Origin: a virus
IMG/VR virus record: IMGVR_UViG_3300042541_002760
DNA: 64,000 bases
Strand: one strand, 5' to 3'
Shown here: one piece after another, positions 1,768 through 18,598 of the stretch
Numbering within the stretch: the stretch's first letter is position 1
Layout of the letters: each line of letters opens with the position of its first letter
The notes under the pieces: model-generated
What the model saw: the letters and a program-made list of their open reading frames with translations, nothing else
Databases searched by the model: none
Told to the model about the DNA's origin: nothing
Program-made: the position numbers and the translations under genes

Positions 1768-1770
1768 CAT

Positions 1771-2046: not shown

Positions 2047-2186
2047 ATCATGATCTACGAGATGCCATATGGCTAAACATTTATATCATTGTATGGAGCA
2101 TCCTTGCGATTACACTCTTTACTCTTGCTCTTCAGTACATGATTCCTTCTCTCTTTGACTCTCCTGCAAGTGGTCATCCCTACTGA
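2043..2186 (+). CDS. small membrane protein
   Basis: ATGA overlap; 47 aa MNHDLRDAIWLNIYIIVWSILAITLFTLAL... with one TM helix. Confidence 0.55.
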   Translation: MNHDLRDAIWLNIYIIVWSILAITLFTLALQYMIPSLFDSPASGHPY

Positions 2187-2227
2187 TTGGGGCTTATTAG
2201 GGCTTATTGTGGGGCTTATTAGGGCTT
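2187..2227 (+). repeat. tandem GGGCTTATT-type repeat (about 4 units)
   Basis: ggggcttattagggcttattgtggggcttattagggctt read directly. Confidence 0.8.
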
Positions 2228-2254
2228 GCATTTGTGATCGATTGATGGTATACT
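2226..2254 (+). promoter_or_regulatory. sigma70-type early promoter with extended -10
   Basis: TTGCAT-17nt-TATACT, TG at extended -10 position. Confidence 0.65.
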
Positions 2255-2258
2255 ACAT

Positions 2259-2306
2259 GGGTCGAAAGGGATTCGTCCTTGCCCAAGTTCGCTTGGGCTA
2301 GACACC
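2259..2306 (+). ncRNA. candidate structured leader/small RNA with two UUCG hairpins
   Basis: AGGGA-TTCG-TCCTT and GCCCAAG-TTCG-CTTGGGC adjacent, flanked by GGGTC/GACACC, starting right after a -10 box. Confidence 0.35.
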
Positions 2307-2334
2307 TGATAATAAGAAATTGGAGGATATCTAA

Positions 2335-2637
2335 ATGAATGCATACCAAAACAACGGCACACGAACAACCTCACATCTGCACCATCCCTCCTTTGGAACA
2401 ATGGAGTTCGGATGGGATAGCAGCGATTGGGTGGTAGTATGCTTTCACAGTGCCTATCCAAACATAGCAAGCGATGTCTCTTTGCGCTTCCATGTATTCC
2501 AAGATAAGAAACCCATGACCGTGGAGAAGAACATGGCAAGGAATATATGGATTGGTCTTACGGCAGCGGATAGAGGTTGGAAAGTATCATTAACACCCAC
2601 CAACCCCATTCTTGCAGAACAGGGAGCGACTCCATAA
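2335..2637 (+). CDS. hypothetical protein (paralog family)
   Basis: GGAGG RBS; HHPSFGTMEFGW..VVCFHS. Confidence 0.8.
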   Translation: MNAYQNNGTRTTSHLHHPSFGTMEFGWDSSDWVVVCFHSAYPNIASDVSLRFHVFQDKKPMTVEKNMARNIWIGLTAADRGWKVSLTPTNPILAEQGATP

Positions 2638-2972
2638 TGAGCCATGCCACACGAACATCAGTATTTCTGCACCATCCCTCACAGGGGACGATGGAGTTCG
2701 CATGGAGTACGAGTGATTATGTGATAGTATGCTTTCATAGTTCCAAGATGCTCCGTGCACCCGCAATCGATTACATCGGTGTGCTCTTCAATATATTCGA
2801 AAATAGGAAACCCGTGCATGTGGAGAAGAACCTAGCAAGAAACATGTGGAATGCCCTTATCGAAAGAGATGAAGGTTGGAAATCTTCAAACATTGTTGGT
2901 AATCCCCCTTCTGATACTATACAGATTGCAGAACAGGGAGTCCCCCTTCTAGAAGAGGCAGTAAACTCATGA
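2637..2972 (+). CDS. hypothetical protein (tandem paralog of 2335..2637)
   Basis: Start revised to MSHATRT; HHPSQGTMEFAW..IVCFHS, VEKNLARN, AEQG shared. Confidence 0.8.
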   Translation: MSHATRTSVFLHHPSQGTMEFAWSTSDYVIVCFHSSKMLRAPAIDYIGVLFNIFENRKPVHVEKNLARNMWNALIERDEGWKSSNIVGNPPSDTIQIAEQGVPLLEEAVNS

Positions 2973-3361
2973 AACACATTGAGTCTCCGTGCAACATCTA
3001 TAGCCTTGCCAAGGAACTCTGTCTGCATATTGATCGCCCCAAGCGGCATTGCAGCATCATCATTCGAAAGGGTCGCATCATCTCAATCGGTACAAATAAG
3101 ATGAAGACTCATCCCATGGCAAAGAAGTATGGATATCTGTTTGACGAACTGCATTCGGAACTCGATGCCTTTCGTAAGTGTAATGAACGCATTGGGCTTG
3201 AACTTTGGAACTTTCGATTCAATCGTTTCGGTAATGAACGACTCAGTCGCCCCTGTCCGAAGTGTCTCCCATGGTGTTATGAAGTATTCGATAGGATTTA
3301 CTACACCACGGGTAGTGGTATCTCTGAACTGCTAACCCATTCATTGGAAATGAATCGATGA
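2969..3361 (+). CDS. cytidine/dCMP-deaminase-like zinc-binding protein
   Basis: HSE..PCxxC (LHSELDA...SRPCPKC). Confidence 0.8.
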   Translation: MKHIESPCNIYSLAKELCLHIDRPKRHCSIIIRKGRIISIGTNKMKTHPMAKKYGYLFDELHSELDAFRKCNERIGLELWNFRFNRFGNERLSRPCPKCLPWCYEVFDRIYYTTGSGISELLTHSLEMNR

Positions 3362-3501
3362 GCCATATTGCACTGCATCTCATACCCGTACTAACATTCA
3401 TCACAGGCATATCTCTATTTGTATTGTGGATCGTCCTTCTATGGGATGCCGCAACAGGGATTAGCCCATCACCCCGTTTCAGAAAGAAAAGTAAACCATG
3501 A
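3358..3501 (+). CDS. small membrane protein
   Basis: ATGA overlaps at both ends; 47 aa, one TM helix, basic C-terminus. Confidence 0.55.
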   Translation: MSHIALHLIPVLTFITGISLFVLWIVLLWDAATGISPSPRFRKKSKP

Positions 3502-4055
3502 GTGCATGCACATACTTCATTGGTTGTACTCACTTCGGACATGAAGCCATGTACCGATTCCTTCGTGCGGACGGCACACGGGTTCGTCCGTGGGCTTCGG
3601 CAGCAGAAGGTGATGCCATAATGGCAGCGAATTGGAACAACACCGTTTCCAAGGGTGACAAGGTATATGTCATGGGTGATGTGGCATTCACACCAAAAGA
3701 TTTAAAAATCCTTGGGTACTTGAACGGCACAAAGATTCTAATCAAAGGCAACCACGACACTCTGCAACTCTCGCAGTACGCAAAATATTTTAAAGATGTT
3801 CGTGCATATCATAAGTTAGACAATGAAATTCTTTCGCATATTCCAATTCATCCCGTGTCCCTTTGGAGAGCAAAACGGAATGCGTCTTGGCTAAATATTC
3901 ACGCACATCTTCACGCCGAAGAAGTAATGCTTGCAGAAGGAGTGACCGATCTACGATATTTCTCTTGCTGTGTGGAGAGAATCGGATACACTCCTATTAG
4001 TATTGATGAGATTAGAAACCGTGTTGCCGCACTCCACCACAAGGAAACCATATGA
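3498..4055 (+). CDS. calcineurin-like metallophosphoesterase
   Basis: xTHFGH, MGD, GNHD, SHIP, HAHLH motifs. Confidence 0.9.
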   Translation: MSACTYFIGCTHFGHEAMYRFLRADGTRVRPWASAAEGDAIMAANWNNTVSKGDKVYVMGDVAFTPKDLKILGYLNGTKILIKGNHDTLQLSQYAKYFKDVRAYHKLDNEILSHIPIHPVSLWRAKRNASWLNIHAHLHAEEVMLAEGVTDLRYFSCCVERIGYTPISIDEIRNRVAALHHKETI

Positions 4056-5194
4056 AAAATAAAAAGGGCTTTACTATTGTTGAACTGTTGGTGGTCGTTT
4101 CGATCATCGCTTTGCTTATTGCAATCCTGTTACCTGCGATTGGTAAGGCACGAGACGCTGCACTCATCACACAGAGTCTAGGCAATCTTCGCAACCTGAG
4201 TGCTGCGAATAATGCATACGGGGCTGACTACAACGACAGGCAGTTTACTGCTGTTCCTGATGAGATTGGAATGTACGGTGATGCCATTACTCCTGCGTGT
4301 ACTGCAATTACTGCTACGCAATGTATTCCGCAAATGCTTCTTGGTTGGGATTCTACTGGTGGTCTGTGGGGATATTGGGTTAGTGGTTCTCCTGCACGAT
4401 GTGCTGCATGGTTAGGAGGTTGCAATAACTTTGTGACATATCAAGCCTGTGATTTTTGGGGAGCATCTGCACGGTGGGAAGGCTCATGGCGGCTCACCAA
4501 TTGTAAGGCATTCAACAGTTATGTTGGTGGCAAATTCTATGACAAGGTTTTTTGGGCACCAAAGGACAAGATTACCCTTGCCAAGATTGACAAGTATTTT
4601 TCCACTCCCGTGGAGTTCAACTTTACGAATGGTGACTTTGAAACCCCCACTTACTGTTGGAGTCCGTCTGCCATGTGGTCGCCAGATGTGATGGCATGGT
4701 CGCGTAAGACAGGTAGTGGTAGTTCTGCGGTGTTTGGTGGAAAGCCAACCAAGGCAACCATGCCTGGTGCTTTCAAGAGTCCAGGCGCAGGTCTTGCACA
4801 GTACCCTTCGCTGAAGTGGCGTATGTGGGAGCATCAATGGCTTCAGAACATGGAAGGCGGCGAAGTGAATCCTGCGTTCTCAACACCAACTCCGTGGTTC
4901 TACAACCAAGGCTACAACAGCGCACCTGCAACTCTCTGCTTTGATGGACACACTCAGGTGGTGTCAATTGCGGGTATTCAGCAGGACAATGACTTGGCAC
5001 TTGCTCAGACAGAGAACGCCAATGGATCTTCGGTCGCTAGTGGCAGTTTGTGGTTTGTTGCTTCGGGTGGAGTAAACTCGTACTACTCTACGGCTGCTTA
5101 CGATATGCTCACCGTTGGTAACGGTTCGTGCAGCGCGGGTGTTCTAACTGTTGATGGTATCCTTGGTCGTGATATGCTTCGTATCGGAGACTAA
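4052..5194 (+). CDS. prepilin-type N-terminal cleavage/methylation domain protein (planctomycete DUF1559-like, H-X9-DG-type C-terminus)
   Basis: KKG|FTIVELLVVVSIIALLIAILLPAIGKARDAA; C-terminal FDGH and T.DGILGRD. Confidence 0.88.
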   Translation: MKNKKGFTIVELLVVVSIIALLIAILLPAIGKARDAALITQSLGNLRNLSAANNAYGADYNDRQFTAVPDEIGMYGDAITPACTAITATQCIPQMLLGWDSTGGLWGYWVSGSPARCAAWLGGCNNFVTYQACDFWGASARWEGSWRLTNCKAFNSYVGGKFYDKVFWAPKDKITLAKIDKYFSTPVEFNFTNGDFETPTYCWSPSAMWSPDVMAWSRKTGSGSSAVFGGKPTKATMPGAFKSPGAGLAQYPSLKWRMWEHQWLQNMEGGEVNPAFSTPTPWFYNQGYNSAPATLCFDGHTQVVSIAGIQQDNDLALAQTENANGSSVASGSLWFVASGGVNSYYSTAAYDMLTVGNGSCSAGVLTVDGILGRDMLRIGD

Positions 5195-5226
5195 TATGAT
5201 TAATATTGTACTTTTAGGAGAAACAC

Positions 5227-5466
5227 ATGAGTGATATATTTGTCGGAGACAATGATCACGGTGATGCAGTTCCACCTACTGATGTTCTATTGCAAACGAT
5301 TAAACTACTCCGTGAGGATGTTGTGCATCTTGCCCATGAACTCAACGAACTCCAAGCGTTATATAAACACGATGAATCTGTAGCAAAGAGTTACGAAAAG
5401 ATTGCCACCAAATATCATGCCACTTTTGAGAAGTTAGCACAAGAGGAGAACGCTAATGAGAATTAA
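5227..5466 (+). CDS. hypothetical coiled-coil protein
   Basis: AGGAG RBS. Confidence 0.7.
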   Translation: MSDIFVGDNDHGDAVPPTDVLLQTIKLLREDVVHLAHELNELQALYKHDESVAKSYEKIATKYHATFEKLAQEENANEN

Positions 5467-5734
5467 ACCACACACACTCGGAGAAAAGATTGCAATGACA
5501 ATGACAAACGATAATGCACCGATCAACGATGCATCCACTCTTGTGGCTCGTCTTGAGGAACACTCAGACTTTGCTCACAAGGTAGTTCGTGATCTTATGC
5601 GTGAGGCATCAGAACGAATTCAGTTTCTCACAAAGGAACGAGACTTCTATGAGATGAAGATGACATTCTATGCCAAGGATACACATCGTGAAGCAGATGA
5701 AGCATTTTGGTTGAAGGAACGACACTCACAGTAA
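5456..5734 (+). CDS. hypothetical protein
   Basis: GAGGAG RBS; shares RL...EA.E.I..L with 6827 and 11442 ORFs. Confidence 0.65.
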   Translation: MRIKPHTLGEKIAMTMTNDNAPINDASTLVARLEEHSDFAHKVVRDLMREASERIQFLTKERDFYEMKMTFYAKDTHREADEAFWLKERHSQ

Positions 5735-5742
5735 GCCTTGCC

Positions 5743-5749
5743 ATAAATA
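5743..5749 (+). promoter_or_regulatory. T4-type late promoter
   Basis: ATAAATA 7 nt upstream of ATG 5757. Confidence 0.55.
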
Positions 5750-5756
5750 AGGGACT

Positions 5757-6830
5757 ATGGCAATACTCAAAAACTACAATCCCACCGTTCATGACATTCA
5801 TACCTATCACGCCCCCGCAACACTCGTACCACTTGTTGGTGGTGAGCAGAAGGGATTCAACCCTTCTTGTCAAGGAGCAGCAGTTGATTGGTCGGGTGTA
5901 AGTTTACGCCCCCGTGCATTTGCGCGAGAGTACTCTAAATTACTAAGAGGCAATCTCACCACTCCGTATATTGCGGAGAGTATTAATTTTTGGAACACAA
6001 CCAATCCTGCTGCTGTTCTCATATCACCCAAGCATGCTCTTATCTGTGAGCATTACCGTGGGCCAGGTCGCCCTGTCGGAGAGTATGAAGCCTACACATT
6101 CTTAGGTAAGTCTGGGACAAGACACTCTCGCAAAGTTGTAAAGGTAACTTTCTCGATTGGGCCTGATCACACTCTATTAGAGTTTGAGTCAGAGTTCCCT
6201 AAGGATGATGTCTGCATTTATGATCATATCGCTGATGCGCGATACATTCCACTCAAACACCCTGTGTGGGTACATGAGTGTGAAGGTAAGGCATACAAGA
6301 TGGACATGGATAAGTCTTTCGTGAACAACGCTGATGTGTGTAATGGGTTTGGTGTTATGCCGATCAAGGATGGTATCAATGAAGGCGCACAGGCAGGAGG
6401 ATGGCCAGTCATTTGGGGTGGCGATAGTGGCAGTCCTGCATTCGTCATTGATGGTGGTGGGCATACTATATTTGTTGGATTGATGAACGGCGGGATGCAG
6501 GTGAATGCTCCTGAGATTCGTGCGATCAATGCTCAAATTCAATCACATGGTTATACCGTAACTCATGTTATGCTGTCATCTAAGATTGAAGACTTGAACG
6601 ATGACGGTAAAGTCGATGGTGCAGACTTGGCAATGCTTCTCGGCGCATGGGGTAATGGAAACATCTTCATGGATATTAATGGAGACGGCAAAGTAGATGG
6701 AGCAGATGTTGCTCAACTACAAGCAGCATGGGGAGCATACACAATGGCTCGAAATGTTCCTGTGCCTGTTGCTCCACCACCAACTGTTAATACAACAAAA
6801 TCAATCAGAGGAACACCTAAAAGACTATGA
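5757..6830 (+). CDS. trypsin-like serine protease with C-terminal dockerin-like (EF-hand) repeats
   Basis: LISPKHALICEH, PDHTLL, GDSGSP; DLNDDGKVDGADLAMLLGAWG and DINGDGKVDGADVAQLQAAWG. Confidence 0.8.
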   Translation: MAILKNYNPTVHDIHTYHAPATLVPLVGGEQKGFNPSCQGAAVDWSGVSLRPRAFAREYSKLLRGNLTTPYIAESINFWNTTNPAAVLISPKHALICEHYRGPGRPVGEYEAYTFLGKSGTRHSRKVVKVTFSIGPDHTLLEFESEFPKDDVCIYDHIADARYIPLKHPVWVHECEGKAYKMDMDKSFVNNADVCNGFGVMPIKDGINEGAQAGGWPVIWGGDSGSPAFVIDGGGHTIFVGLMNGGMQVNAPEIRAINAQIQSHGYTVTHVMLSSKIEDLNDDGKVDGADLAMLLGAWGNGNIFMDINGDGKVDGADVAQLQAAWGAYTMARNVPVPVAPPPTVNTTKSIRGTPKRL

Positions 6831-7015
6831 ACGACATAGAAACAAGGCTGCGAAATATGGCTGACAAGTGGCGCACAGTAAACCAAGAGATTTATGATAT
6901 CTGTCGTGATGCTGCTGAAGAAATTCGAGTACTCAAAGCATCAGGTAAATACACAGACGATATCATCAATGCATACAAGCATGGAACGGGATGGGGTAAA
7001 GGTAGTGACGAGTAG
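6827..7015 (+). CDS. hypothetical protein
   Basis: ATGA overlap; DI..RL...DAAEEI. Confidence 0.65.
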   Translation: MNDIETRLRNMADKWRTVNQEIYDICRDAAEEIRVLKASGKYTDDIINAYKHGTGWGKGSDE

Positions 7016-7038
7016 TACTCACCAACCAAAAGACTAAA

Positions 7039-7437
7039 ATGGGACTAACACAATTATATAAAGGCGCAGGAACATCGACCCCCATCTTCAAAAAGTATGG
7101 AACGATATTCTATGACCAAACGAGCATGGGACTCCCTGTATGTAATGTCAAAGGATCGAAGGTATGGGCGGGTGCATCAAACAGTAAAGCACTGTTGACA
7201 ATTGTCGGAACAAAGGCATTCAGTGGTGCATCAACATCGAACTGTGTCTTTCATTATGAGAAGGGAATCGTCTTTAAGGGTGCAGGAACCGATATGCCCC
7301 TCTATCGATGGGCAGGAAGCCATCTGTATCAGGGCGCAGGATCTGCAAAAATCGTACTAAATTGGACGGGCAATAATCTAACGCTTACTGATGTATTTGC
7401 ATCGATATTGTTGCTCCGAACAACATACAAAGTTTAA
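7039..7437 (+). CDS. beta-repeat protein (about five ~21-aa x[YFW]xGA repeats)
   Basis: LYKGAG, VWAGAS, AFSGAS, VFKGAG, LYQGAG. Confidence 0.65.
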   Translation: MGLTQLYKGAGTSTPIFKKYGTIFYDQTSMGLPVCNVKGSKVWAGASNSKALLTIVGTKAFSGASTSNCVFHYEKGIVFKGAGTDMPLYRWAGSHLYQGAGSAKIVLNWTGNNLTLTDVFASILLLRTTYKV

Positions 7438-7454
7438 TAGTTTTTCAAAAACTA

Positions 7455-7469
7455 CAGAATCTGCGTCCT
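7455..7469 (+). repeat. 15-bp direct repeat, copy 1
   Basis: CAGAATCTGCGTCCT, identical to 8352-8366. Confidence 0.8.
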
Positions 7470-7485
7470 GAGTGAATGTGTATAT

Positions 7486-8259
7486 TTATTTACTAAAGAC
7501 AAAGATTCCGCAGCCATTCCACCATCCGAACTTATCTCCTGATCCGTCCAGATATCCTGTGTTGTTGTTCGTTGGAGCCGCAGCATGAAACAAAACCTTT
7601 AGTCCGAGGTCTGCAATTGCTTGGTCAACATTGCTTCTTATTCTGGCACCAAAAGTCGTATCATGTGCAGCATAGGTAAGCCAATCATCAACCATGAAAA
7701 TGAATTGATCGCCCATCGCATCATAAAAATGTGACAATGATTTGTGCACATTTCGATCACCCTTCTCATCATTTCCCCCATCACAAAAACATACATCGAT
7801 GTTTTTCATTGAATGTTCTGAAAGATTAATTTTGAAGCAGTCGGTATCGATTAATACAGGAGTCTTGTTTTTCATAAACATATTCCAGTTTTCGAAGAAT
7901 TTGTTTTTAGTGTTGTCTACAGTTCCCCATGCCTCAGACCAATTGTCAATTAGCCAATGTCTTTGTATATTGTCGTTGTCATACAATGCCGAAATTGCTG
8001 TGGATCCTGTCCAACAACCAATCTCCATATAAGACGATATCTGTGGCTGTGCCATTAAATTGTTAGTAAAACTGCGAAACATTGCCCCCGACATTCCATC
8101 CATAGTAAGTAGACGAGGATCCAGTCGCGTAGTATATTGAATGCGTTTTAGTGTATTGGGGTCAAACAGGGAAATGTCCCTGTGCTTTTCTGTGCCCCCA
8201 TGTGCAGTATCATTCCATGCTTTTCGAACAGCAGCAACAAGTTGTTCACCACGACTCAT
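7486..8259 (-). CDS. class I SAM-dependent methyltransferase (Methyltransf_24-like)
   Basis: YMEIGCWTGST motif I, DVCFCDGG, MVDDW; AAGGAG RBS. Confidence 0.8.
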   Translation of the reverse strand: MSRGEQLVAAVRKAWNDTAHGGTEKHRDISLFDPNTLKRIQYTTRLDPRLLTMDGMSGAMFRSFTNNLMAQPQISSYMEIGCWTGSTAISALYDNDNIQRHWLIDNWSEAWGTVDNTKNKFFENWNMFMKNKTPVLIDTDCFKINLSEHSMKNIDVCFCDGGNDEKGDRNVHKSLSHFYDAMGDQFIFMVDDWLTYAAHDTTFGARIRSNVDQAIADLGLKVLFHAAAPTNNNTGYLDGSGDKFGWWNGCGIFVFSK

Positions 8260-8351
8260 AATATATCTCCTTTTGTCGTTTTTGAGTGTAAATTACACGA
8301 CAGTACTGTATATAGGGGGAAGTTGATCCAATTTAAATCTCACAAAAATCT

Positions 8352-8366
8352 CAGAATCTGCGTCCT
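8352..8366 (+). repeat. 15-bp direct repeat, copy 2
   Basis: CAGAATCTGCGTCCT. Confidence 0.8.
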
Positions 8367-8371
8367 CCCCA

Positions 8372-8399
8372 TTGACTTATGGGCAGATTGTGGTACTAT
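8372..8399 (+). promoter_or_regulatory. sigma70-type early promoter
   Basis: TTGACT-16nt-TACTAT with TGn extension. Confidence 0.55.
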
Positions 8400-8421
8400 T
8401 CAAGTGAAGAGAGAACCCCCT

Positions 8422-8730
8422 ATGAAACAGACAGCCACCGCCGTCATGAACCCTCCCGCCCCCGTCACTGAGACAGCCGAGAACCATTGGATGTCCTATA
8501 AGGATCGCCCTGCGACCATGACTTTGCAAGAGATGGCAGTATGGATGATCACCAATAACCCGTCTATGGCAGTCTCTGTCTTGATGGGTGCCATGGAAGA
8601 GAACGCAACATTGCCTACGGGAACCGATGGCAAGATGGTCGAGGTCACCGTATGGGACGAGCAGGGTGACCCCCACTACAACTTGACTGAGCAAGGGCAA
8701 CACTACTACGATCAGACCGTCCCCGACTAA
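8422..8730 (+). CDS. hypothetical early protein
   Basis: Start revised to MKQTAT downstream of promoter. Confidence 0.7.
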   Translation: MKQTATAVMNPPAPVTETAENHWMSYKDRPATMTLQEMAVWMITNNPSMAVSVLMGAMEENATLPTGTDGKMVEVTVWDEQGDPHYNLTEQGQHYYDQTVPD

Positions 8731-8753
8731 TCTAACACAACAATTCTCTCTTC

Positions 8754-8782
8754 GAATCTGTCCTTGTCATAAGGACAGATTC
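8754..8782. other. intergenic inverted repeat (12-bp stem)
   Basis: GAATCTGTCCTT-gtcat-AAGGACAGATTC; no U-tract, function uncertain. Confidence 0.6.
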
Positions 8783-8814
8783 ATTACAATCTAATCTTCT
8801 CATAAGGACACACT

Positions 8815-8955
8815 ATGAATATGTCAACAGTCAGTAAAGCAAAAACAAAAATTCTGAATTGGGTATGGGATCATCCCCTCGCCACCACCATTCTCGTATC
8901 AATCCCCACATTCATCGTAGTGATATGGGTTGCACTCAAGAAACACATTCTCTAA
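8815..8955 (+). CDS. small membrane protein
   Basis: AAGGA RBS; 46 aa with one TM helix. Confidence 0.55.
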   Translation: MNMSTVSKAKTKILNWVWDHPLATTILVSIPTFIVVIWVALKKHIL

Positions 8956-8963
8956 GGCACCGT

Positions 8964-9119
8964 ATGGCAATCAAGAAGAAAATCAAACCGAAGACACAGA
9001 CTTTAGGGTTTACCCGAATCGTTGATGGTATATGCAATCTCGTAGTTGTGGTTGTTATGCTCATTGGCATAATCATCCTTTACGATATCACATCCCACAT
9101 CATTAATCTCAAAAAATAA
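8964..9119 (+). CDS. small membrane protein
   Basis: Start revised to MAIKKK; TM helix. Confidence 0.6.
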   Translation: MAIKKKIKPKTQTLGFTRIVDGICNLVVVVVMLIGIIILYDITSHIINLKK

Positions 9120-9120
9120 C

Positions 9121-9148
9121 TTGACAGCCGTACTGCCTAGGTTACAAT
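9121..9148 (+). promoter_or_regulatory. sigma70-type early promoter
   Basis: TTGACA-16nt-TACAAT. Confidence 0.65.
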
Positions 9149-9180
9149 TAGCATAATCCATAACAAGGAAATTATAAGAA

Positions 9181-9408
9181 ATGCCCAAGAAGATTGATCA
9201 AGAAGAAGACTTTGTTCCTACTCATCGTCACCGCACCTTTACTCGATATGTTGTCTTGAGTGATGGTAAGACATTTGATGCAGTGTCTGACTGCAAGGAA
9301 ATCGAAGTCCCCGATGATATCGAAGATGTCGCGGGATATATTCGTGCTCGTATTCATGCACATGATCACCCGATCTTAGATTGGACTTTGGGCAAGAAGA
9401 CTGAGTAA
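9181..9408 (+). CDS. hypothetical protein
   Basis: Downstream of promoter. Confidence 0.65.
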   Translation: MPKKIDQEEDFVPTHRHRTFTRYVVLSDGKTFDAVSDCKEIEVPDDIEDVAGYIRARIHAHDHPILDWTLGKKTE

Positions 9409-9457
9409 GAATTATTAAGATTCAATTCAGGATTCCAATTTTCCAATATACTTGTCC

Positions 9458-9655
9458 ATGGAACTTCTTATTTCTACAATGACAACGGTGTCTATTATTT
9501 CGTTTCTGTCCGCATCTTATCTTTGGTTGTATCGGTTTGCACACCAACAAGGATTTGATAAGGGACATCACGAAGGGTTTGTTGAAGGACTCAATAAGCA
9601 TCGTGCGTTGAGTAATCGCAATAAGCAACGAGATCGTGTTGCCGTAGGAGTGTAA
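9458..9655 (+). CDS. small membrane protein
   Basis: N-terminal TM followed by GxxxG repeats (GFDKGHHEGFVEG). Confidence 0.6.
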   Translation: MELLISTMTTVSIISFLSASYLWLYRFAHQQGFDKGHHEGFVEGLNKHRALSNRNKQRDRVAVGV

Positions 9656-9666
9656 CAAATATTACT

Positions 9667-10101
9667 ATGAATGAAATATGGACTCATCACTTTCTCATTG
9701 GAAGAAATCAATTTGGTTCTCCTGTTCTTGTAGCATTCTGTATTGATGGAATTACAGATACTGTGAAGATCTTTCCATATGTGATGCTACATCCTCTAGC
9801 AGATCCAAATGGTCTACCACAACTCTCAATGACAGAATTGGGATCGTATGTCCACAAGAATGATATCGGTGTATCGCTTTCATTATATGAGGGTCGCGTG
9901 ATATGGACTCGTCTATGTGGGAACCCATGGTTTGAAATGACCCCGACTACATTCCATGCTCATTATCCAAGGCATGACTATCATGTGGGGTCGATCTTCT
10001 TAAGGAAGAATATCACTTTGAATCCCGTGGTACGAAACCTCAATTGTTCGTACACCCCTCCCATCGATAAGATCAACAGCAACTATGCTCTTGAAGCATG
10101 A
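9667..10101 (+). CDS. hypothetical protein
   Basis: Contains GRVIWTRL..W resembling the paralog-family motif. Confidence 0.6.
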   Translation: MNEIWTHHFLIGRNQFGSPVLVAFCIDGITDTVKIFPYVMLHPLADPNGLPQLSMTELGSYVHKNDIGVSLSLYEGRVIWTRLCGNPWFEMTPTTFHAHYPRHDYHVGSIFLRKNITLNPVVRNLNCSYTPPIDKINSNYALEA

Positions 10102-10139
10102 CTAAATATTGACACACTTCTTTACAATGAGGACTTATA

Positions 10140-11168
10140 TTGAAGAATTTAAATGTTGAGTGGAATGGTAAAATGGCTGTCATCACAGGGGTGAATGGAC
10201 AGGATGGATCATATCTTGCAGATATGCTTCTCGCTAAGGGATACCAAGTCGTTGGTCTCAAGCGCAGAACTTCAACCATCAGCACAGGTCGCATCGACCA
10301 TCTATATGAAAACCCACTGTTCAAGTTACATCACTATGATTTGACTGATGGCGCATCGGTGCTGCATATCCTTGCACAATACAAGCCTGACGAGTTTTAT
10401 AACTTGGCGGCTCAATCGCATGTTGCAGTGTCCTTTGAAATTCCTGAGTACACATCGGATGGTATTGCAGGTGGCACTCTTAAGATTCTTGAGGGAATCC
10501 GCAGTGTTAGTCCACAGACTCGATACTACCAAGCATCATCATCGGAAATGTACGGCGACAGCAAGGATTACCATCCTTCGTTTGGATATGACGAACACAG
10601 TCGAATGATGCCCGTGTCTCCATATGCAGTAGCAAAACTTCATGCCCATCATATGACTCGTGTATATCGAAATGCATATGGTATTCATGCATCGTCAGGT
10701 ATTCTATTCAATCATGAGAGTCCACGCCGTGGCGAGACATTCGTGACTCGAAAGATTACCATGGCAGCAGTACGAATCAAGATGGGTCTTCAGAAGGAAC
10801 TGCATCTAGGTAACCTGAATGCCAAGCGTGATTGGGGATTCGCAGGTGACTATGTAGAAGCCATGTGGCTCATGCTTCAACAGCCCGAGGGGGATGACTA
10901 TGTGATTGCCACACAGCAGACTCATACAGTCCGCGAGTTCCTTGATGTTGTGTTCGAAGAAGCAGGACTTGATTGGCACAAGCATGTGATCATTGATCCC
11001 AAGTACTTCCGTCCGAACGAGGTGCCCTTCTTGCTAGGAGACCCTGCCAAGGCAAAAGAGAAACTTGGTTGGCAACCCAAGGTAGATATGAAGTTGCTTG
11101 CGCGAATGATGTACAAGAGCGATATGGCAGAGTTGACAAAGCAAATGAATGTGGGCATAACCCCATGA
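10140..11168 (+). CDS. gmd: GDP-mannose 4,6-dehydratase
   Basis: [56 protein letters not shown]. Confidence 0.97.
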
Positions 11169-11455
11169 CATTACCCGATGAACAACATCGTGCAATAATT
11201 CAGACCAAGGAATTTCTCTACTCCCTGATGGATCCAAAGAAGACTCCTAAGGTTCCTCGCACAATTAGAACTACTGCATGTCAATTGCTTAGGCATTTCC
11301 CAACAGACTATGATGCAGACATCCTACTTCGATGCCTTCATACAGAATGGCTTGGAGTAGATTCCGATTCTGCAATTCATGATCCCGTTGAGGCATTCGA
11401 TCCCATTTATCAGAAGGAAGTATTCGATGGAGTCACAGGAAATGAACATCGTTGA
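11165..11455 (+). CDS. conserved hypothetical (BPSL0761-like)
   Basis: Start revised; MTLPDE..RA...EFL..L..P..TP.VP..IR..A..LLRHFP. Confidence 0.6.
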
Positions 11456-11693
11456 TCGTCTAACACTCGCACTAGAAATGGCTGATCATGATCCGCAAAA
11501 TACATCAGTCCTTATTCGAGATGCACGAGATGAGATACACAAACTACAAGGACTTGTATATGCATATCCGAAATTCGAACCGTATCTTTCAGATGGAAGA
11601 ACATGGAGGGCAGAATATGAAGAACTCTATTCTACGATTGCTGCCTTTAGTGTGGAAGACTTTCTTCTGTGGAAGAATGCAATGCAGGAGTAA
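11442..11693 (+). CDS. hypothetical protein
   Basis: Start revised to MNIVDRL. Confidence 0.6.
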   Translation: MNIVDRLTLALEMADHDPQNTSVLIRDARDEIHKLQGLVYAYPKFEPYLSDGRTWRAEYEELYSTIAAFSVEDFLLWKNAMQE

Positions 11694-11698
11694 TACAC

Positions 11699-11998
11699 AT
11701 GACACCATTTGATCAAAATAAAATAGGAGAGTTCTATGCAAGTCTTCATGCACTTGTCAATGACTATCATAGGCTCGAAGAGTTTCATGAATCTGTGATG
11801 AAGGGCAATCACATATCTCGAAATGGGACACTGTACTCTCAGCAATTGATGAGTGGCTCGGGGAATAGCACAGCAGCAGAAGCAGAAGTGATTCGCCTTA
11901 ACAAATTGATGTTTGAATTGAAGACTCATAATGCTGTCCTCCAATCGACAGTAACTTCACTTCAAGCAAATTCTCCCAAAGCCGCAAAAAAGAAGTAA
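11699..11998 (+). CDS. hypothetical coiled-coil protein
   Basis: AGGAG RBS before MTPFDQ. Confidence 0.6.
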   Translation: MTPFDQNKIGEFYASLHALVNDYHRLEEFHESVMKGNHISRNGTLYSQQLMSGSGNSTAAEAEVIRLNKLMFELKTHNAVLQSTVTSLQANSPKAAKKK

Positions 11999-12024
11999 TG
12001 CCATAATTGGCATAGGAATTTATA

Positions 12025-12300
12025 ATGAACGACACCACAACAGGACAATGGATTCTTCGATGGGATAAGCACCCCACAAAGACAATCATATTCACAATGC
12101 ATCATCCACAGGTATTGATATGGGGCACAGGCTTTCAGGGGCTTGATGATCCACCACCGAAGGCAGTAGTTCACAATACCTCCCGAGGAACATGGACACT
12201 TGATTTAGATAACGAGAATGCTTCCACTAGCCTAGGCATCGAATATGCAAGGGAAATTTGGAACGCACTTCTCGATCTTGGATGGACACGACAGCAATAA
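12025..12300 (+). CDS. hypothetical protein (paralog family)
   Basis: C-terminal AREIWNALLDLGW. Confidence 0.65.
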   Translation: MNDTTTGQWILRWDKHPTKTIIFTMHHPQVLIWGTGFQGLDDPPPKAVVHNTSRGTWTLDLDNENASTSLGIEYAREIWNALLDLGWTRQQ

Positions 12301-12336
12301 AAATGATTATTGGTCGCTTATTGATGACCATCTGCA

Positions 12337-12365
12337 TTGACAATTGATGTGGGATACTGTACAAT
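12337..12365 (+). promoter_or_regulatory. sigma70-type early promoter
   Basis: TTGACA-17nt-TACAAT. Confidence 0.75.
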
Positions 12366-12396
12366 TGAAGTATACAACTGAAAGGATCCCATTCGA

Positions 12397-12630
12397 ATGA
12401 GTCACTTCTATGCTGCTATCTCAAAATCTGCGCGTAAGACTACACCTACGGCGCGGGGTCATCGTTCAACGGGAATCGAAACCGTAACACAATCGTTCAA
12501 GGGACAGATTCGCACTGTTCTGTGGTATGATGCCGTAACCAATCAGGATATGTACAAAGTCATACTCCAACCACATGGAACAAGTAGTCATTATGGATTA
12601 GTTCTCGCAACGGGAGCAATCAATTGTTGA
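12397..12630 (+). CDS. conserved phage hypothetical protein
   Basis: MSHFY...T.TARGH..SG/TGI pattern; AAGGA RBS. Confidence 0.65.
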   Translation: MSHFYAAISKSARKTTPTARGHRSTGIETVTQSFKGQIRTVLWYDAVTNQDMYKVILQPHGTSSHYGLVLATGAINC

Positions 12631-12654
12631 TGCCATTACAGGACACCCAATAAG

Positions 12655-13059
12655 ATGAACAAAAACCCAATATTCAATAGCACAATCAATCGACTGACTT
12701 TTGACAAAGTGAATCTGCCAACAGCGGTATGGGGAGATAAGGATGCGGCAGTATTGAAACTGCTTGATTGGCTAGAGGCTGCTCGAAAAGTTGTAATCTC
12801 GCCCTATTCGAATCCAAACTTCAGTTATGTTGGAATGATGCTGCCTGTTCTTGAGATGTATGATGGTCGCAGATACATTCGTGTTGACAAGGTGCATTCG
12901 GATAGGCGATCAGTCTATGCATTCATCGACAAGACGAATGGAGACATCCTACGGGCTGCTGGCTATAAGAAACCCGCCAAGCATGCCCGAGGTAATATCT
13001 TTGATCAATGGAATGGTACTTCGATGATCGAACCCTATGGGATCATGTATCTGCAATAA
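12655..13059 (+). CDS. conserved phage hypothetical protein
   Basis: GRRYIRV...SVYAFID..GDI..AA.YKKPAK.ARGNI pattern widespread in large phages. Confidence 0.7.
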   Translation: MNKNPIFNSTINRLTFDKVNLPTAVWGDKDAAVLKLLDWLEAARKVVISPYSNPNFSYVGMMLPVLEMYDGRRYIRVDKVHSDRRSVYAFIDKTNGDILRAAGYKKPAKHARGNIFDQWNGTSMIEPYGIMYLQ

Positions 13060-13075
13060 CTTCACAAGGAACCCT

Positions 13076-13285
13076 ATGAACACCAAAGACTATATCAGCA
13101 TCTTATCGGTTGCAACCATTTCCGCATTCTTTATTGTATTTGTTCTAACGGGCTGTTACTTGGCACTCTATCAATACCTGCGTGATACGGGAATTACCTT
13201 TTGGCAGGTGGTACTGCTCTATACTTCCGTTTCGACAACCCTAGGAATTTTGAGTGCAGCGATCAAGATGAAAAAGAAGCAATGA
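13076..13285 (+). CDS. two-TM membrane protein
   Basis: AAGGA RBS before MNTKDY; two hydrophobic helices, basic C-terminus. Confidence 0.6.
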   Translation: MNTKDYISILSVATISAFFIVFVLTGCYLALYQYLRDTGITFWQVVLLYTSVSTTLGILSAAIKMKKKQ

Positions 13286-13290
13286 TTTGA

Positions 13291-14157
13291 TTATCCTGTT
13301 GGAGGTACGGACACAGAAGCCGCTGCGGCGGCTTTCTTCTTTTCCTCTTCCAATTTCTTAAATCCATTTTTTTCTTTGATTTTGGCAACAATCTCTTTTG
13401 TCAAATCAGATTGTAGATTTGCTGCAATACCATCAGCACCAAAGATTCTTTTCTGTTCATCTTCGGTCATGGTCTCTTTAAGAATCTCAATCATTTCCAC
13501 GATTTCCCGAATCGCAATACTATTGCGTTTGCTATTGATTGTAGACCATGCGATCATTCCAACTGCACATACAAAGGCACCTATGAGTAGGATTGCACCC
13601 ACCATTGCGATCTCATCCATATATCGCTGTGATGCCGATGCAAAGCCAAGCATAAGGGCACCGAGCAGTACAAGTGCTCCACCATACCCCTTGTTCAAGA
13701 AGAACGCTACGGCGGCTCCTGTGGCGATTAAAATGAAGCCGATAACCCAAAACATGGTGATATAACCATAGAGCCGCTCCATCGCGGCAACCTTTGCCCC
13801 GTCCATAGCAATTCGTAAATTGGACAACGAGGTTTCAAGTTTAGAAACCTCAGAGGTAAGGTCTTTCAGTTTGTCCGTTTGCTTTACTACTGCATCGGCA
13901 GATTCGATGATATTGTCTGCCTTACTATTGATTTTTTCTGATGTTACTTTATCACTTACAGTAGCAGCCTTGGTGGTTTTCTTAATATCAAGGGCATCTT
14001 TCCTAATCGAATTTGCATTATCGTTTGTGTGTTCTACGATAGCATTCAAAGTAGCCGATGAAGTGCCGTTTGATGGTTCAACAATCGGTGCGGTCTTACA
14101 GGCTGTTATGTTGATTGCAAGAAGTGTTCCGACAATAAGATTGCATATTGATTTCAT
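13291..14157 (-). CDS. lipoprotein with coiled coil and C-terminal TM helices (spanin-like candidate)
   Basis: Start revised to MKSICNLIVGTLLAINITA|C (lipobox); coiled-coil; three TM segments. Confidence 0.7.
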   Translation of the reverse strand: MKSICNLIVGTLLAINITACKTAPIVEPSNGTSSATLNAIVEHTNDNANSIRKDALDIKKTTKAATVSDKVTSEKINSKADNIIESADAVVKQTDKLKDLTSEVSKLETSLSNLRIAMDGAKVAAMERLYGYITMFWVIGFILIATGAAVAFFLNKGYGGALVLLGALMLGFASASQRYMDEIAMVGAILLIGAFVCAVGMIAWSTINSKRNSIAIREIVEMIEILKETMTEDEQKRIFGADGIAANLQSDLTKEIVAKIKEKNGFKKLEEEKKKAAAAASVSVPPTG

Positions 14158-14162
14158 ACTCT

Positions 14163-14169
14163 TATTTAT
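14163..14169 (-). promoter_or_regulatory. T4-type late promoter
   Basis: ATAAATA on minus strand just upstream of ATG 14157. Confidence 0.55.
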
Positions 14170-15593
14170 GGGCATGATCCCCATGCAGCAAGCAGTACCC
14201 CCAAGTCCTGCCCATCTACAGTCATATCTCCCGTGATGTCTGATGATGCTGTTCCCCATGAAGATAAGAGTTTGCCCAAATCACTTCCATCCACAACCCT
14301 ATCACCATTAAGATCGGATACGCATGGAAGGGGAGAAGCGACAATTACGGCGGCTTCTGCGTTCAGCATTCCCCATCCCGTGAGGGTATCAAAGCCAACG
14401 GTTCCCATGTCTTTGCATGTAGTCTTCATGATTGTCTCCACCTGTGCAGCAGAAAGGGATGGATTTGCAGAGAGGATTAGTGCAGCAACACCCGCAGCAT
14501 ACGGCGAAGAGAATGATGTGCCGTCAATTGTGGTGTAGTCTCCCGATCCATATCCATTTGTTCCTGTCCTATCGGTGGTGTAGATCGATTGTCCTGCTGC
14601 GACAAAGGCAATCTTTGAGCCATATGATGAGAACGATGCTTTCTGTCCATTTCGGCTGCTTGCACCAACTGCATTAACACTCGATGTGCTTGCAGGAAAA
14701 CCTATAGTTGTATTTCCTGAATTGCCCGAAGACGCAAAGTTTACTACCCCTGCATTTCGTGCTGCTGTGTATGCAGTTGCCATTGCGGTCGATACTGTTC
14801 CATAGTCATTGCTGTTGTTGGTAACACGAACACCGTTTGCAATGCCCCAATTGATGGCATTTACCGTCCATGATGTCTGTCCCTGCCATGATCCATTACA
14901 TGGAGTGATTGATACACCCACCTTTGCAGATATAACTTTGCAATTTGGAGCAACACCAACAGTTCCTATAGAATTGTTGATGATGCCCGTAACACATCCT
15001 GCAACTGCTGTTCCGTGATTGTCGCATGAGTTGCTTGGATCTCCACCCGCAACACCATTGACTACACTTGTGGTGAAGTCACGCCCTGTCAATTGATTGA
15101 TGTCGGGATGGTTTTGCTGTATGCCTGTTTCGAAAATGAGTATCTTAATAGCCGATGATCCCTGTGTGATCGACCATGCGTTCGAGGTATTCATGTCAAA
15201 GTTGACAAGTCCTCCCGATGTTCCTGTATTGCGATGCCCCCAACACTGAGAAAACCCTACATCATTTGGAATCACCTCATGGCGAGTCGCAGTGAACACT
15301 TGATCTCCTTCTATAAATTCGATATTCGGATTTGCAGCAAGAACCGACATTGCATGATTCATCGAGGCAACACTGTTCATATTGATAAGCGTGAGGTTTG
15401 GAATATGAGAGTAGTGCTCTGTGCTTTCAATTCCCGATATGACTGAAAGGATTGTATCCTTGTCTGTGTCATTCTTCCACTGTACGAAGAAGGTGTCTAT
15501 CGCAGTCGGCTGTGGTTCTGTCTTACGAATGCCATTTGCGCCACTGAGTATGATCATGCTTGTGAGAAGTGATAAGATTGCTTTCATATTCAT
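14166..15593 (-). CDS. secreted S8 (subtilisin-family) peptidase with C-terminal dockerin-like repeats
   Basis: Signal peptide, prodomain, FETG..HPD, NHGTAVAG, SSGN, GTSFSSP; DLNGDRVVDGSDLGKLLSSWG and DITGDMTVDGQDLGVLLAAWG. Confidence 0.92.
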   Translation of the reverse strand: MNMKAILSLLTSMIILSGANGIRKTEPQPTAIDTFFVQWKNDTDKDTILSVISGIESTEHYSHIPNLTLINMNSVASMNHAMSVLAANPNIEFIEGDQVFTATRHEVIPNDVGFSQCWGHRNTGTSGGLVNFDMNTSNAWSITQGSSAIKILIFETGIQQNHPDINQLTGRDFTTSVVNGVAGGDPSNSCDNHGTAVAGCVTGIINNSIGTVGVAPNCKVISAKVGVSITPCNGSWQGQTSWTVNAINWGIANGVRVTNNSNDYGTVSTAMATAYTAARNAGVVNFASSGNSGNTTIGFPASTSSVNAVGASSRNGQKASFSSYGSKIAFVAAGQSIYTTDRTGTNGYGSGDYTTIDGTSFSSPYAAGVAALILSANPSLSAAQVETIMKTTCKDMGTVGFDTLTGWGMLNAEAAVIVASPLPCVSDLNGDRVVDGSDLGKLLSSWGTASSDITGDMTVDGQDLGVLLAAWGSCP

Positions 15594-15608
15594 AGTGTTC
15601 TCCTAATA

Positions 15609-15616
15609 TGTTTATA
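15609..15616 (-). promoter_or_regulatory. late-promoter variant
   Basis: TATAAACA upstream of AGGAG RBS of the S8 gene. Confidence 0.4.
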
Positions 15617-15678
15617 CGGATCACCGATCCATGCTGTTCATAAAATGGCATGAAAAGACTCATACCATAAACACTAGT

Positions 15679-15894
15679 ATGACCAATACCACCTCATCTA
15701 AAAATCGTGAGTATATTATTACAATGGTCTATATGATGGGAACGGAAATCTCTCCAACAATCCTATACCATGTCACGATGAAAGAATGCAATCGTTTGCG
15801 TGATGTAGGATGGGCTGAGGTACTCGTATCGTTTCAACATATCGGTGAAAAATTAAGTGTTCGATACACGGGTATCCCTACCGAAAAGATATAA
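15679..15894 (+). CDS. hypothetical protein
   Basis: ORF following ATAAACA; start uncertain. Confidence 0.45.
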   Translation: MTNTTSSKNREYIITMVYMMGTEISPTILYHVTMKECNRLRDVGWAEVLVSFQHIGEKLSVRYTGIPTEKI

Positions 15895-16005
15895 CTATGC
15901 CACGAAGACAAGCAGTTACTCGTCCGAAAAGACCACAAAAGCCTTCTTCATCCACCAAGCCATCAGGCACACAGAAGCCAATACCACCCAAGGCTACTCA
16001 AAAGC

Positions 16006-16557
16006 CTATGAAACCTTGACGATATCATATGTGTCGAATACAAAATTGACTGTTGCACTCATCACCGATGGTTCATTTTCACTGTGGCTTAAAGTAAATC
16101 CTGATATCTGAGTAGGAATCAGATTGGAAAATGTCATCATGAGTATGGGGTTCTTCTTGTTGTTTAAGAAGAACAACTTGCCATGGTTTACATTTCCCTT
16201 GTACTCGGGGACAATCTCCTTGAAGTCGCGATATGGAACTCCTGATCGCATCCACTTAACCATCTCCATATAGTTGCGGAAGTTCTCATCGATGATGAAT
16301 CTCAATGAGATATCAGATGATGCCCTACCACCTGGAGATTTGATATCGTTTGCAGCAAACAGATGATTGTGAACTGTTGGGGTTGATGTAAGATTCGGTG
16401 TCTGTACCGATGTGCAGAAGTATGTAACAGTGGGCACCTTCTCACATATAAATCTGTAATTGGTGCTTGCAGCAAGATTTGTGTTGAGAGGATTGTTTCC
16501 TAATGCACCAAAGTTTGTCAGTTCAGGAAGCCAATTCTTGACGCTAGGTGATGTCAT
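16006..16557 (-). CDS. gp3: tail completion/tube terminator gp3-like protein (copy 2)
   Basis: STNYRF..K.P.VTYFC...P..; F.IDENF.NY.E...W; follows gp23. Confidence 0.8.
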   Translation of the reverse strand: MTSPSVKNWLPELTNFGALGNNPLNTNLAASTNYRFICEKVPTVTYFCTSVQTPNLTSTPTVHNHLFAANDIKSPGGRASSDISLRFIIDENFRNYMEMVKWMRSGVPYRDFKEIVPEYKGNVNHGKLFFLNNKKNPILMMTFSNLIPTQISGFTLSHSENEPSVMSATVNFVFDTYDIVKVS

Positions 16558-17102
16558 TAAGGATCCTTTATGTCATAAGAGGTAAACTGAAATGTTGCAT
16601 CACATATAATGATCGGTGCATCAGCAACAGAAGAATTCATCGGAATGTTTCCAAGACCCGTAATCATAAGTCCATCAAAAACAATTCGTGCTACAGGGGT
16701 TTTCTTATTGTTCAGTATTAGCAATTGCCCCGAATCGGAAATGAGATTCATCATTCTTGCCTGAGAGTTATCATTGAAGAATCCATAGTAGTTGAGAGAT
16801 TTCTTAAACCAATCCGACATCTCAAAGTAATTACTGAAGTCTTCATTGATGATGAACTTGACTACCAATTCTCCATGGTCAATTTTGTTGCCGAAAAACT
16901 TTATCGGAGATGCCATTGGTACAGAAACCCGAATGGGTTCCATACTCAAAGACGGAAATGATACCTCGGTGCAAAAATACACGGCATTACGAACCTTAGG
17001 AATCATCAACCTAAAATTGGTTGAGAATGCAGGATTCGTATTAATAGGCTGTCTGTTAAGACTGCCAGCAACAATATCATCAGGTATCTTAGGTACTGTC
17101 AT
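16557..17102 (-). CDS. gp3: tail completion/tube terminator gp3-like protein (copy 1)
   Basis: STNFRL...VYFCT.V.FP; FIINEDFSNY.E..W. Confidence 0.8.
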   Translation of the reverse strand: MTVPKIPDDIVAGSLNRQPINTNPAFSTNFRLMIPKVRNAVYFCTEVSFPSLSMEPIRVSVPMASPIKFFGNKIDHGELVVKFIINEDFSNYFEMSDWFKKSLNYYGFFNDNSQARMMNLISDSGQLLILNNKKTPVARIVFDGLMITGLGNIPMNSSVADAPIIICDATFQFTSYDIKDP

Positions 17103-17108
17103 CGATAG

Positions 17109-17115
17109 TATTTAG
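17109..17115 (-). promoter_or_regulatory. T4-type late promoter
   Basis: CTAAATA. Confidence 0.6.
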
Positions 17116-17153: not shown

Positions 17154-17191
17154 CATGAATTTTACTGCAATATGCAGTGAATTTGTACAAA

Positions 17192-18586: not shown

Positions 18587-18598
18587 CGTTAATGCTAT

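Follow-up and report, generated by a model that had tools for sequence, protein, structure and literature searches.

Putative envelope-directed genes in a T4-like lake phage point to a Phycisphaerales host

The stretch analyzed here, called the window throughout, is 64,000 nucleotides (nt) of viral DNA (IMG/VR record IMGVR_UViG_3300042541_002760) with a guanine-plus-cytosine (GC) content of 42.5%. We followed up an original prediction, made from the sequence of the window, that positions 4052-15593, which form the accessory region upstream of the structural module, contain a pilin-like gene at 4052 (P0001) and two proteases, at 5757 (P0002) and 14166 (P0003). All three open reading frames (ORFs) lay exactly where they had been placed. 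The virus had also been described as a T4-like phage, and this was borne out by the structural genes and by the identity of the capsid protein. From about 16 kb onward the minus strand encodes a T4-type structural module, with PHROG matches at expectation (E) values of 1e-42 to 1e-205 to the major capsid protein, scaffold, portal, sheath, large terminase subunit (TerL), baseplate wedge, gp5-like hub and others; the gp23-type capsid, gp20, gp18, gp17, gp22, gp6 and gp5 hub are thus all represented, as expected of a T4-like myovirus with a Straboviridae-type structural module. The capsid protein was 60-64% identical to pelagimyophage and cyanomyovirus capsids, with 64% identity to those of Pelagibacter phage Mosig and the Methylophilales Melnitz phages. 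At least 73% of sampled words from positions 13200-18600 were present in at least 18 lake-water metagenome runs, and the window is a T4-like myovirus recurrent in lake water. ARAGORN found no tRNA genes in it.

The pilin-like gene (4052-5194, plus strand) encodes a pseudopilin-like protein of 380 residues with a prepilin-type (class III) signal at its N-terminus, MKNKKGFTIVELLVVV. The motif KKGFTIVELL can be read there directly, and residues 1-27 matched both the Pfam profile N_methyl (PF07963; 31.1 bits, cut-off 21.2) and TIGR02532 (24.7 bits, cut-off 16.3), so that the protein belongs among those of prepilin type. The gene had been predicted to be prepilin/DUF1559-like; the first part of that description stood, but neither the Pfam profile DUF1559 (PF07596) nor the H-X9-DG profile (TIGR04294) matched P0001 at E<=0.01, and PF07596 was present in just one related protein-atlas cluster, on 14% of its members. 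The protein is at most a distant cousin of DUF1559 and belongs to a separate, Phycisphaerales-centered family. It is not a GspG protein by profile TIGR01710, against which it scored 28.5 bits (cut-off 88.85) with residues 5-59 alone aligned. Its N-terminal 60 or so residues resembled solved pilins (geopilin, PilE and PilA) at profile E values of 1e-9 to 1e-5. The AlphaFold2 (AF2) model, made from a 15-row alignment, had a predicted local distance difference test score (pLDDT) of 38, too low for a statement about the fold of the C-terminal domain.

A search for relatives of P0001 gave 2490 homologs, the named ones being proteins from Planctomycetota, Phycisphaerae or Phycisphaerales metagenome-assembled genomes (MAGs). 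The best 80 loci on contigs from a one-genome-per-species collection were nearly all from Planctomycetota, mostly freshwater Phycisphaerales, the nearest protein-atlas clusters were all from Planctomycetota, and there was no relative among the INPHARED phage genomes. Two cellular contigs of Phycisphaerales MAGs (L041 and L042; 58.5% GC) carry an ortholog 91-92% identical to P0001 in amino acids and 83-84% in nucleotides. These contigs encode a cobalamin adenosyltransferase, a uracil phosphoribosyltransferase, an M28-PDZ peptidase and a GH95 fucosidase and, besides the pilin-like gene, have no gene in common with the phage, whose copy has a GC content of 49%. In a maximum-likelihood tree, the window copy and that of a second phage locus (L001) grouped with the L041 and L042 copies with a support of 99; that group sits within Phycisphaerales orthologs supported at 100, themselves within a larger family that is planctomycete throughout. 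Because the phage copies are nested in a cellular clade, the direction of transfer was from host to phage, and P0001 is a recent capture from PHYCISPHAERALES.

Five MAGs holding P0001 relatives (G001-G005; 2.3-3.5 Mb, incomplete) were used as candidate hosts. Full-length orthologs occurred once each in G001-G004 and three times in G005, out of 8-16 prepilin-type matches per MAG in all, the further ones having other C-terminal domains. An A24 prepilin peptidase scored above the Pfam cut-off in four of the five, and each had 4-6 secretins; the machinery that a phage pseudopilin would need is therefore present. In three RNA runs (X21, X23 and X24) we observed contigs 90-95% alike, with a depth of 52-104 and GC-rich loose ends, on positions 4494-5040 only. 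Their probable source is the host ortholog rather than the phage, so we did not use them as evidence of phage expression; if they are indeed from the host, the gene is a highly expressed one in lakes, contig depth being a poor measure.

The boundaries of the pilin cassette can be placed by comparison with sister phages. Upstream of it is a phosphoesterase gene (3498-4055, plus strand; phrog_547 at 2.6e-42), whose stop codon overlaps the P0001 start codon (ATGA). In sister phage contigs a phosphoesterase ortholog, 86-98% identical, is followed directly by the 5227-5466 gene, and in contigs L007, L009 and L011-L013 these two flanking genes of the cassette are joined directly; in L011 the small gene that comes next has its start within the phosphoesterase gene (98% identical). 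Relative to L011, the window has the pilin ORF and a 32-nt spacer between the flanking genes, and no host flank was captured. The cassette is thus a precise insertion of the ORF and nothing more. Among phage loci, P0001 was present only in L001, which came from a different sample and carries a 97% identical copy with its phage flanks. A contig from RNA run X19 joined position 4037 to position 5232 through 15 other letters (AAGGAATCCAATGGC), the same cassette-less arrangement as in L011; its occurrence in an RNA library indicates that phage variants with and without the pilin gene coexist in lakes.

The gene at 14166-15593 on the minus strand (P0003) encodes a predicted secreted subtilase of 475 residues, which consists of a Sec-type signal (residues 1-21; MNMKAILSLLTSMIILSGANG), a pro-region, an S8 domain and a C-terminal tag of the host type. 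Residues 147-408 matched Peptidase_S8 (PF00082) with 144.3 bits and an E value of 6.1e-42, which makes the protein a subtilase by profile, and its C-terminus reads ...DLNGDRVVDGSDLGKLLSSWG...DITGDMTVDGQDLGVLLAAWGSCP, directly before the stop codon. An S8 protease with a C-terminal tag had been predicted, and the 144-bit domain match together with the duplicated calcium (Ca)-loop/LLxxWG C-terminus confirmed it. The gene adjoins the capsid module in viral contigs L022-L040 (64-100% identity); across many independent IMG/VR contigs its place is the same, with the capsid gene and two tail-tube paralogs as neighbors. Close relatives (50-94% identity) were about 455-510 residues long, and many came from contigs that were viral or of phage size. 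Among named cellular proteins, those closest to P0003 were from Phycisphaerae, Phycisphaeraceae and Planctomycetes MAGs, at 48-50% identity, and the best S8 proteins of G001-G005 were merely 31-35% identical to P0003. From these distances we infer that P0003 was acquired from Phycisphaerae earlier than the pilin-like gene and is now inherited within the phage clade, fixed next to the capsid genes.

The catalytic region of P0003 contains E155, H193, N291 and S360; instead of the canonical Asp-His-Ser triad of S8 proteases, it has His193, Asn291 and Ser360 with Glu155 (codon 15129-15131, minus strand) at the position of the catalytic Asp, so that the motif reads FETG instead of DTG. ETG was present in 86 of the 111 scorable close relatives; cellular Phycisphaerae relatives had DTG or DNG. 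On the tree, the Glu state formed essentially one clade with a support of 98 and two Asp members inside it, with four changes between Asp and Glu in all, and His193, Asn291 and Ser360 were kept throughout the clade, down to about 50% identity. Because these three residues are kept, and because Asp and Glu interchange on the tree, we read P0003 as a working enzyme; the pattern argues for a protease that tolerates Glu at the Asp position, not for a dead one. For enzymology, the clade-wide change from Asp to Glu in the triad of a subtilase is a minor curiosity, and one that could be tested at the bench.

The gene at 5757-6830 on the plus strand (P0002) encodes a chymotrypsin-fold (PA clan) serine protease of 357 residues, with the motif GDSGSP, the triad H99/D137/S224 and no signal peptide. 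Its naming as an S1 protease held in part: the protein is S1-like by fold and catalytic triad, but the Pfam profiles Trypsin and Trypsin_2 gave no match to it at E<=0.01. The AF2 model (pLDDT 90) was a chymotrypsin-type double beta-barrel, for which Foldseek returned tryptase, matriptase and HGF-beta as top matches (E values of about 1e-5 to 1e-6, probability 1.00, TM score about 0.5 on the target). The double barrel, the His-Asp-Ser order and the GDSGxP motif together place it in the PA clan, and His99, Asp137 and Ser224 were invariant in 22 relatives. The family comprises about 60 clusters, many on phage-sized contigs of 100-170 kb, and copies 77-93% identical occurred in 14 viral contigs (L006-L019). 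The catalytic domain was not found in G001-G005, and P0002 is a protease of phages only; it matched no PHROG family. A T4-style capsid-targeting signal or gp21 cleavage signal in P0002 was considered and dropped, the candidate Glu not being conserved.

Each of the two unrelated proteases had been said to carry paired repeats. A pattern search for the Ca-loop/LLxxWG repeat gave four matches in the six-frame translation of the window and none in each of 200 shuffles, and the four formed two pairs, at 6594-6734 in P0002 and 14169-14345 in P0003, in agreement with that claim and in these two proteins only. The P0002 pair (plus strand) is a type I dockerin by the Pfam profile Dockerin_1 (PF00404; 28.4 bits, cut-off 22.9, residues 278-322). 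It lacks both Cys residues and is not terminal, being followed by a 33-residue tail rich in Pro and Lys; some P0002 relatives have an unrelated C-terminus in place of the module. The P0003 pair (minus strand), PCVSDLNGD...LLSSWG...DITGD...LLAAWGSCP-stop, is a GC-type dockerin-like tag of 59 residues (417-475) that gave no match to PF00404 at E<=0.01, although its duplicated segment is visible by eye.

When P0003 was compared with the five candidate host MAGs, it gave 50-119 matches per MAG, almost all to its last 60 or so residues and at 45-66% identity. Most of the 20 tag places examined in G002 belonged to signal-peptide proteins with unrelated bodies, which included a PhoD phosphatase, a GH5 cellulase with a CBM2 module, FG-GAP and RCC1 propellers and a di-haem peroxidase. 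Sixteen of these 20 proteins stop 3-4 residues past the final WG, typically as WGxCP-stop, and a Cys stands just before the first of the two Ca-loop/LLGAWG repeats. The C-terminus of P0003 is the same module in every feature. In an even sample of 121 genomes from across the phylum, searched at E<=1e-9, the phage-type tag was found at 44 places in G002 and at none in the other 120; at E<=1e-12 it was found in 34 of 151 genomes of the order to which G002 belongs, with 40-318 first-look candidates in each, all but one having at least 72. The phage-type tag is therefore limited to a subgroup of Phycisphaerales, in which it is present in dozens of copies per genome.

The profile NF041540 (GC-type dockerin domain-anchored protein) matched at 10-60 places per candidate MAG and scored above its cut-off in none of 14 control genomes. 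P0003 has the terminal WGSCP and the leading Cys of the G002 proteins, some of which exceed that cut-off. Our literature searches found no paper on family NF041540 and none on phage proteins with this tag. Two other genomes of the same order (G011 and G017; 3.3-3.4 Mb) each had at least 220 first-look NF041540 candidates at 48-57 bits, and thus show a second, separate and extreme tag expansion, without a match to the phage-type tag. Related phages were seen to tag further proteins, an ORF of 1085 residues (G010:C1:50845-50997, on the related phage contig of L038) and one of 269 residues (G009:C1:16436-16591, on that of L037), from which it follows that the set of tagged cargo varies between phages.

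As the most probable host we see a freshwater planctomycete of the Phycisphaerales with a small genome, from the lineage to which G001 and G002 belong. Three independent lines, the nested pilin ortholog at 91-92% identity, the S8 relatives and the order-confined tag, strongly support the assignment to Phycisphaerales; a planctomycete host had been predicted. The published literature on planctomycete phages that we found was sparse, all of it metagenomic host predictions (freshwater Planctomycetes) given without detail.

Short motifs bear on when the two proteases might be made. A T4-type late-promoter-like motif, ATAAATA (5743-5749, plus strand), starts 14 nt upstream of the P0002 ATG, and TATAAACA (15609-15616, minus strand), one mismatch from the T4 late promoter TATAAATA, lies 23 nt upstream of the P0003 ATG; both are motif matches only. 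Late-type motifs (ATAAATA or [CT]TAAATA) also stand 13-14 nt before the genes at 36723-37064, 16557-17102 (tail tube), 46459-48780 and 59359-60516 (baseplate tube cap), and ATAAATA stands 29 nt before the scaffold gene and 40 nt before the sheath gene. Together these motifs give a hint of late expression of P0002 and P0003. In four metatranscriptomes, analyzed as contigs, the capsid and scaffold genes were covered by near-identical contigs; P0003 was represented by two short contigs, about 94% alike, from one run. Parts without coverage carry no meaning.

Several neighboring genes deserve description. Directly after the S8 gene lies that for a 288-residue protein (P0004; 13291-14157, minus strand), which has the lipobox LAINITAC, some 105 residues of helical segment, three transmembrane helices and a charged, Lys/Glu-rich cytoplasmic tail; it had no curated Pfam match and no PHROG match, and viral contigs L022-L030 and L037 have it together with P0003. 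A holin-like ORF of 82 residues with two transmembrane helices (13037-13285, plus strand) runs convergent to P0004. P0004 may be an envelope-spanning partner or a lysis protein, and the two genes together may make up a cassette for lysis or for the envelope. A small protein matching the Pfam profile Bflower_3 (6-fold beta flower, 41 bits) is encoded at 7039-7437 (plus strand), shortly after the P0002 operon. A GDP-mannose 4,6-dehydratase gene (10140-11168, plus strand; Pfam GDP_Man_Dehyd, 2.5e-121) is an accessory gene of the same region outside the secretome theme. The major capsid gene is followed directly, on its downstream side, by the tandem tail-tube (phrog_45) paralogs at 16006-16557 and 16557-17102 (both minus strand), which share about 32% identity.

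The explanation that accounts best for these results, and that we judge to be rather probable, is that a T4-like phage of lakes infects a Phycisphaerales host and carries three envelope-directed genes. The original prediction went further and had the phage hijack the export or anchoring route of its host. This is reasonable for P0003, with its Sec signal and exact host-type tag, and for the pseudopilin, with its class III signal and a prepilin peptidase and secretins in the host MAGs, but it does not fit P0002, which has no signal peptide and a divergent, non-terminal tag, and for which the candidate host MAGs yielded no relative. We propose that host prepilin peptidase would cut the class III signal of P0001, which would then join a host type II secretion or type IV pilus-like machinery. 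P0003 would be exported by Sec, and its tag would hold the protease where the host holds its own dozens of tagged exoproteins. Late in infection, the anchored protease might trim host surface proteins, possibly the phage's own receptor. Progeny would then be released more easily, and neither they nor competing phages would adsorb to debris or to cells already infected; the phage pseudopilin would maintain or modify the apparatus for secretion or pili. That late trimming of tag-anchored surface proteins for release and for prevention of adsorption is the purpose of these genes is our preferred suggestion, and a tentative one. The same tentativeness attaches to its extension to the phage clade as a whole, which may late in infection decorate the Phycisphaerales surface with a Glu-His-Ser subtilase by means of the host tag, for receptor destruction, superinfection exclusion or release.

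A number of points weigh against this interpretation. The link to the host, strongly supported as we consider it, is drawn from the relatedness of genes and not from direct linkage; comparison of window positions 1-20000 with the 151 genomes of the order gave gene homology only, with two candidates scored per genome, too few for spacers. The GC contents of the phage (42.5%) and candidate host (58.5%) are 16 points apart. MAG labels are the names given by submitters, and the MAG of L041 is labeled Chitinophaga; we read this label as wrong because the contig is syntenic with L042 and the MAG shows the same tag expansion. The hint of late timing comes from short motifs, one of them mismatched, and P0003 might have lost some or all of its proteolytic activity through the Glu at the catalytic Asp position. 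P0002 cannot use the Sec route, since it has no signal peptide. Against NF041540 (cut-off 29 bits) both phage tags scored below the cut-off, P0002 with 22 bits and P0003 with 18.6. Anchoring of proteins is a putative function of the tag. The Pfam cohesin profile (PF00963) had a match in one of the five candidate host MAGs, whereas five related phage contigs of 100 kb had none, MAGs and contigs alike being incomplete; a single cohesin-like ORF in G002 (L129) is a candidate partner. With cohesin nearly absent despite dozens of tags, classical cohesin binding is an unlikely explanation, and cohesin is probably not the main partner of the tag.

A second possible purpose is nutritional. In a proposal by Andrei et al. 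(2019, ISME J, PMC6461901), peptidases of freshwater Phycisphaerae (Nemodlikiaceae/CL500-3) are tethered by a non-cellulosomal cohesin/dockerin system, the "planctosome", and the tagged phage proteases could join such degradation of protein at the host surface and feed amino acids to the cell over a long latent period, with the pseudopilin sustaining type II secretion. Many hydrolases carry the host tag, and the small genomes of the host lineage, with probably slow growth, make a long infection plausible. However, the late-promoter-like motifs and the structural and membrane genes nearby point to expression late in infection, which suits a feeding role poorly, and both the near absence of Pfam cohesin from the candidate host MAGs and the non-canonical Glu in the triad of the S8 clade count against it. 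We consider nutrient scavenging unlikely, though it deserves to be kept in mind.

It is also conceivable that P0002, and possibly other tagged proteins, is carried in the virion, so that its module binds the ligand of the host tags and the protease digests a proteinaceous surface layer at adsorption. The lack of a signal peptide and a family known from phage-sized contigs only would suit such a role, as would a late-type motif at the 13-14 nt spacing common to the tail-tube and baseplate tube-cap genes, the exchange of the C-terminal module in some relatives, as in receptor-binding proteins, and the tag on the 1085-residue ORF of a related phage contig. However, P0002 has no recognizable virion-attachment domain or PHROG structural match and lies in the accessory region instead of the tail module, and the proposal is inapplicable to P0003 with its Sec signal; we regard it as improbable. 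A chimeric assembly with host DNA, or generic Ca-binding repeats uninformative on the host, might be suspected from the occurrence of dockerin-like modules in many phyla, from stray contigs that MAG bins may hold and from the 16-point GC gap. Misassembly is excluded, however, by the synteny of these genes with phage genes, which recurs across many independent contigs of IMG/VR and in lake metagenomes, and by a pilin-like gene that is 83% and not 100% identical in nucleotides to the host gene, has 49% GC and brings no host flank. As 120 other genomes sampled from the phylum lack the phage-type tag and 14 controls gave no NF041540 match above its cut-off, we give this explanation almost no weight.

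The surface-directed reading that we prefer, and the host assignment on which it builds, have consequences of different kinds. Through the assignment, a clade of large lake phages that is abundant and recurrent, and that previously had no host, gains a well-supported one, and the order-restricted C-terminal tag is a simple sequence marker with which more such phages can be found. If the proposed use of the tag is correct, the tag would be a portable address label that phages can both read and write, and a marker by which sequence alone could assign phages to an uncultured Phycisphaerales group. That a phage has copied it would show the tag alone to be a transferable functional unit, and P0003 would be a compact test protein for finding the binding partner of the tag. 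New here are the 92% host ortholog, the exact boundaries of the cassette, the distribution of the tag over the order (151 genomes) and the phylum (121 genomes), the agreement of the tag architecture residue by residue, the Glu-for-Asp triad and the phage-only nature of P0002.

Each element of this system has known counterparts. Like the type II pseudopilins and type IV pilins (GspG and PilA), P0001 has a class III signal (G|FTxxE) and a hydrophobic N-terminal helix; unlike them, it has a 320-residue C-terminal domain that resembles planctomycete proteins only. P0003 follows the order of signal, pro-region, catalytic domain and C-terminal extension found in MEROPS S8 pre-pro-proteases with C-terminal anchoring domains, and shares the conserved His, oxyanion Asn and Ser of the subtilisin family, but differs in the Glu at the catalytic Asp position throughout its phage clade and in having the Phycisphaerales tag as its C-terminal domain. 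NF041540 describes a C-terminal module of paired Ca-loops and helices ending in Gly-x-Cys and hits both phage proteases weakly, below its cut-off; its core lineage (G011 and G017) is a different subgroup from the one whose tags resemble those of the phage. With the planctosome (PMC6461901) our proposal shares the host group and the idea that Ca-dependent dockerin modules tether peptidases at the surface, whereas that hypothesis concerned cellular proteins and no phage, and here the tag is on phage proteases. The region as a whole resembles the accessory regions of cyanomyoviruses and pelagimyophages, in which host-derived genes are held in a hyperplastic region between conserved modules and can be used as a host marker; in contrast to their metabolic auxiliary genes, the cargo here, a pseudopilin and tagged proteases, would be targeted to the envelope.

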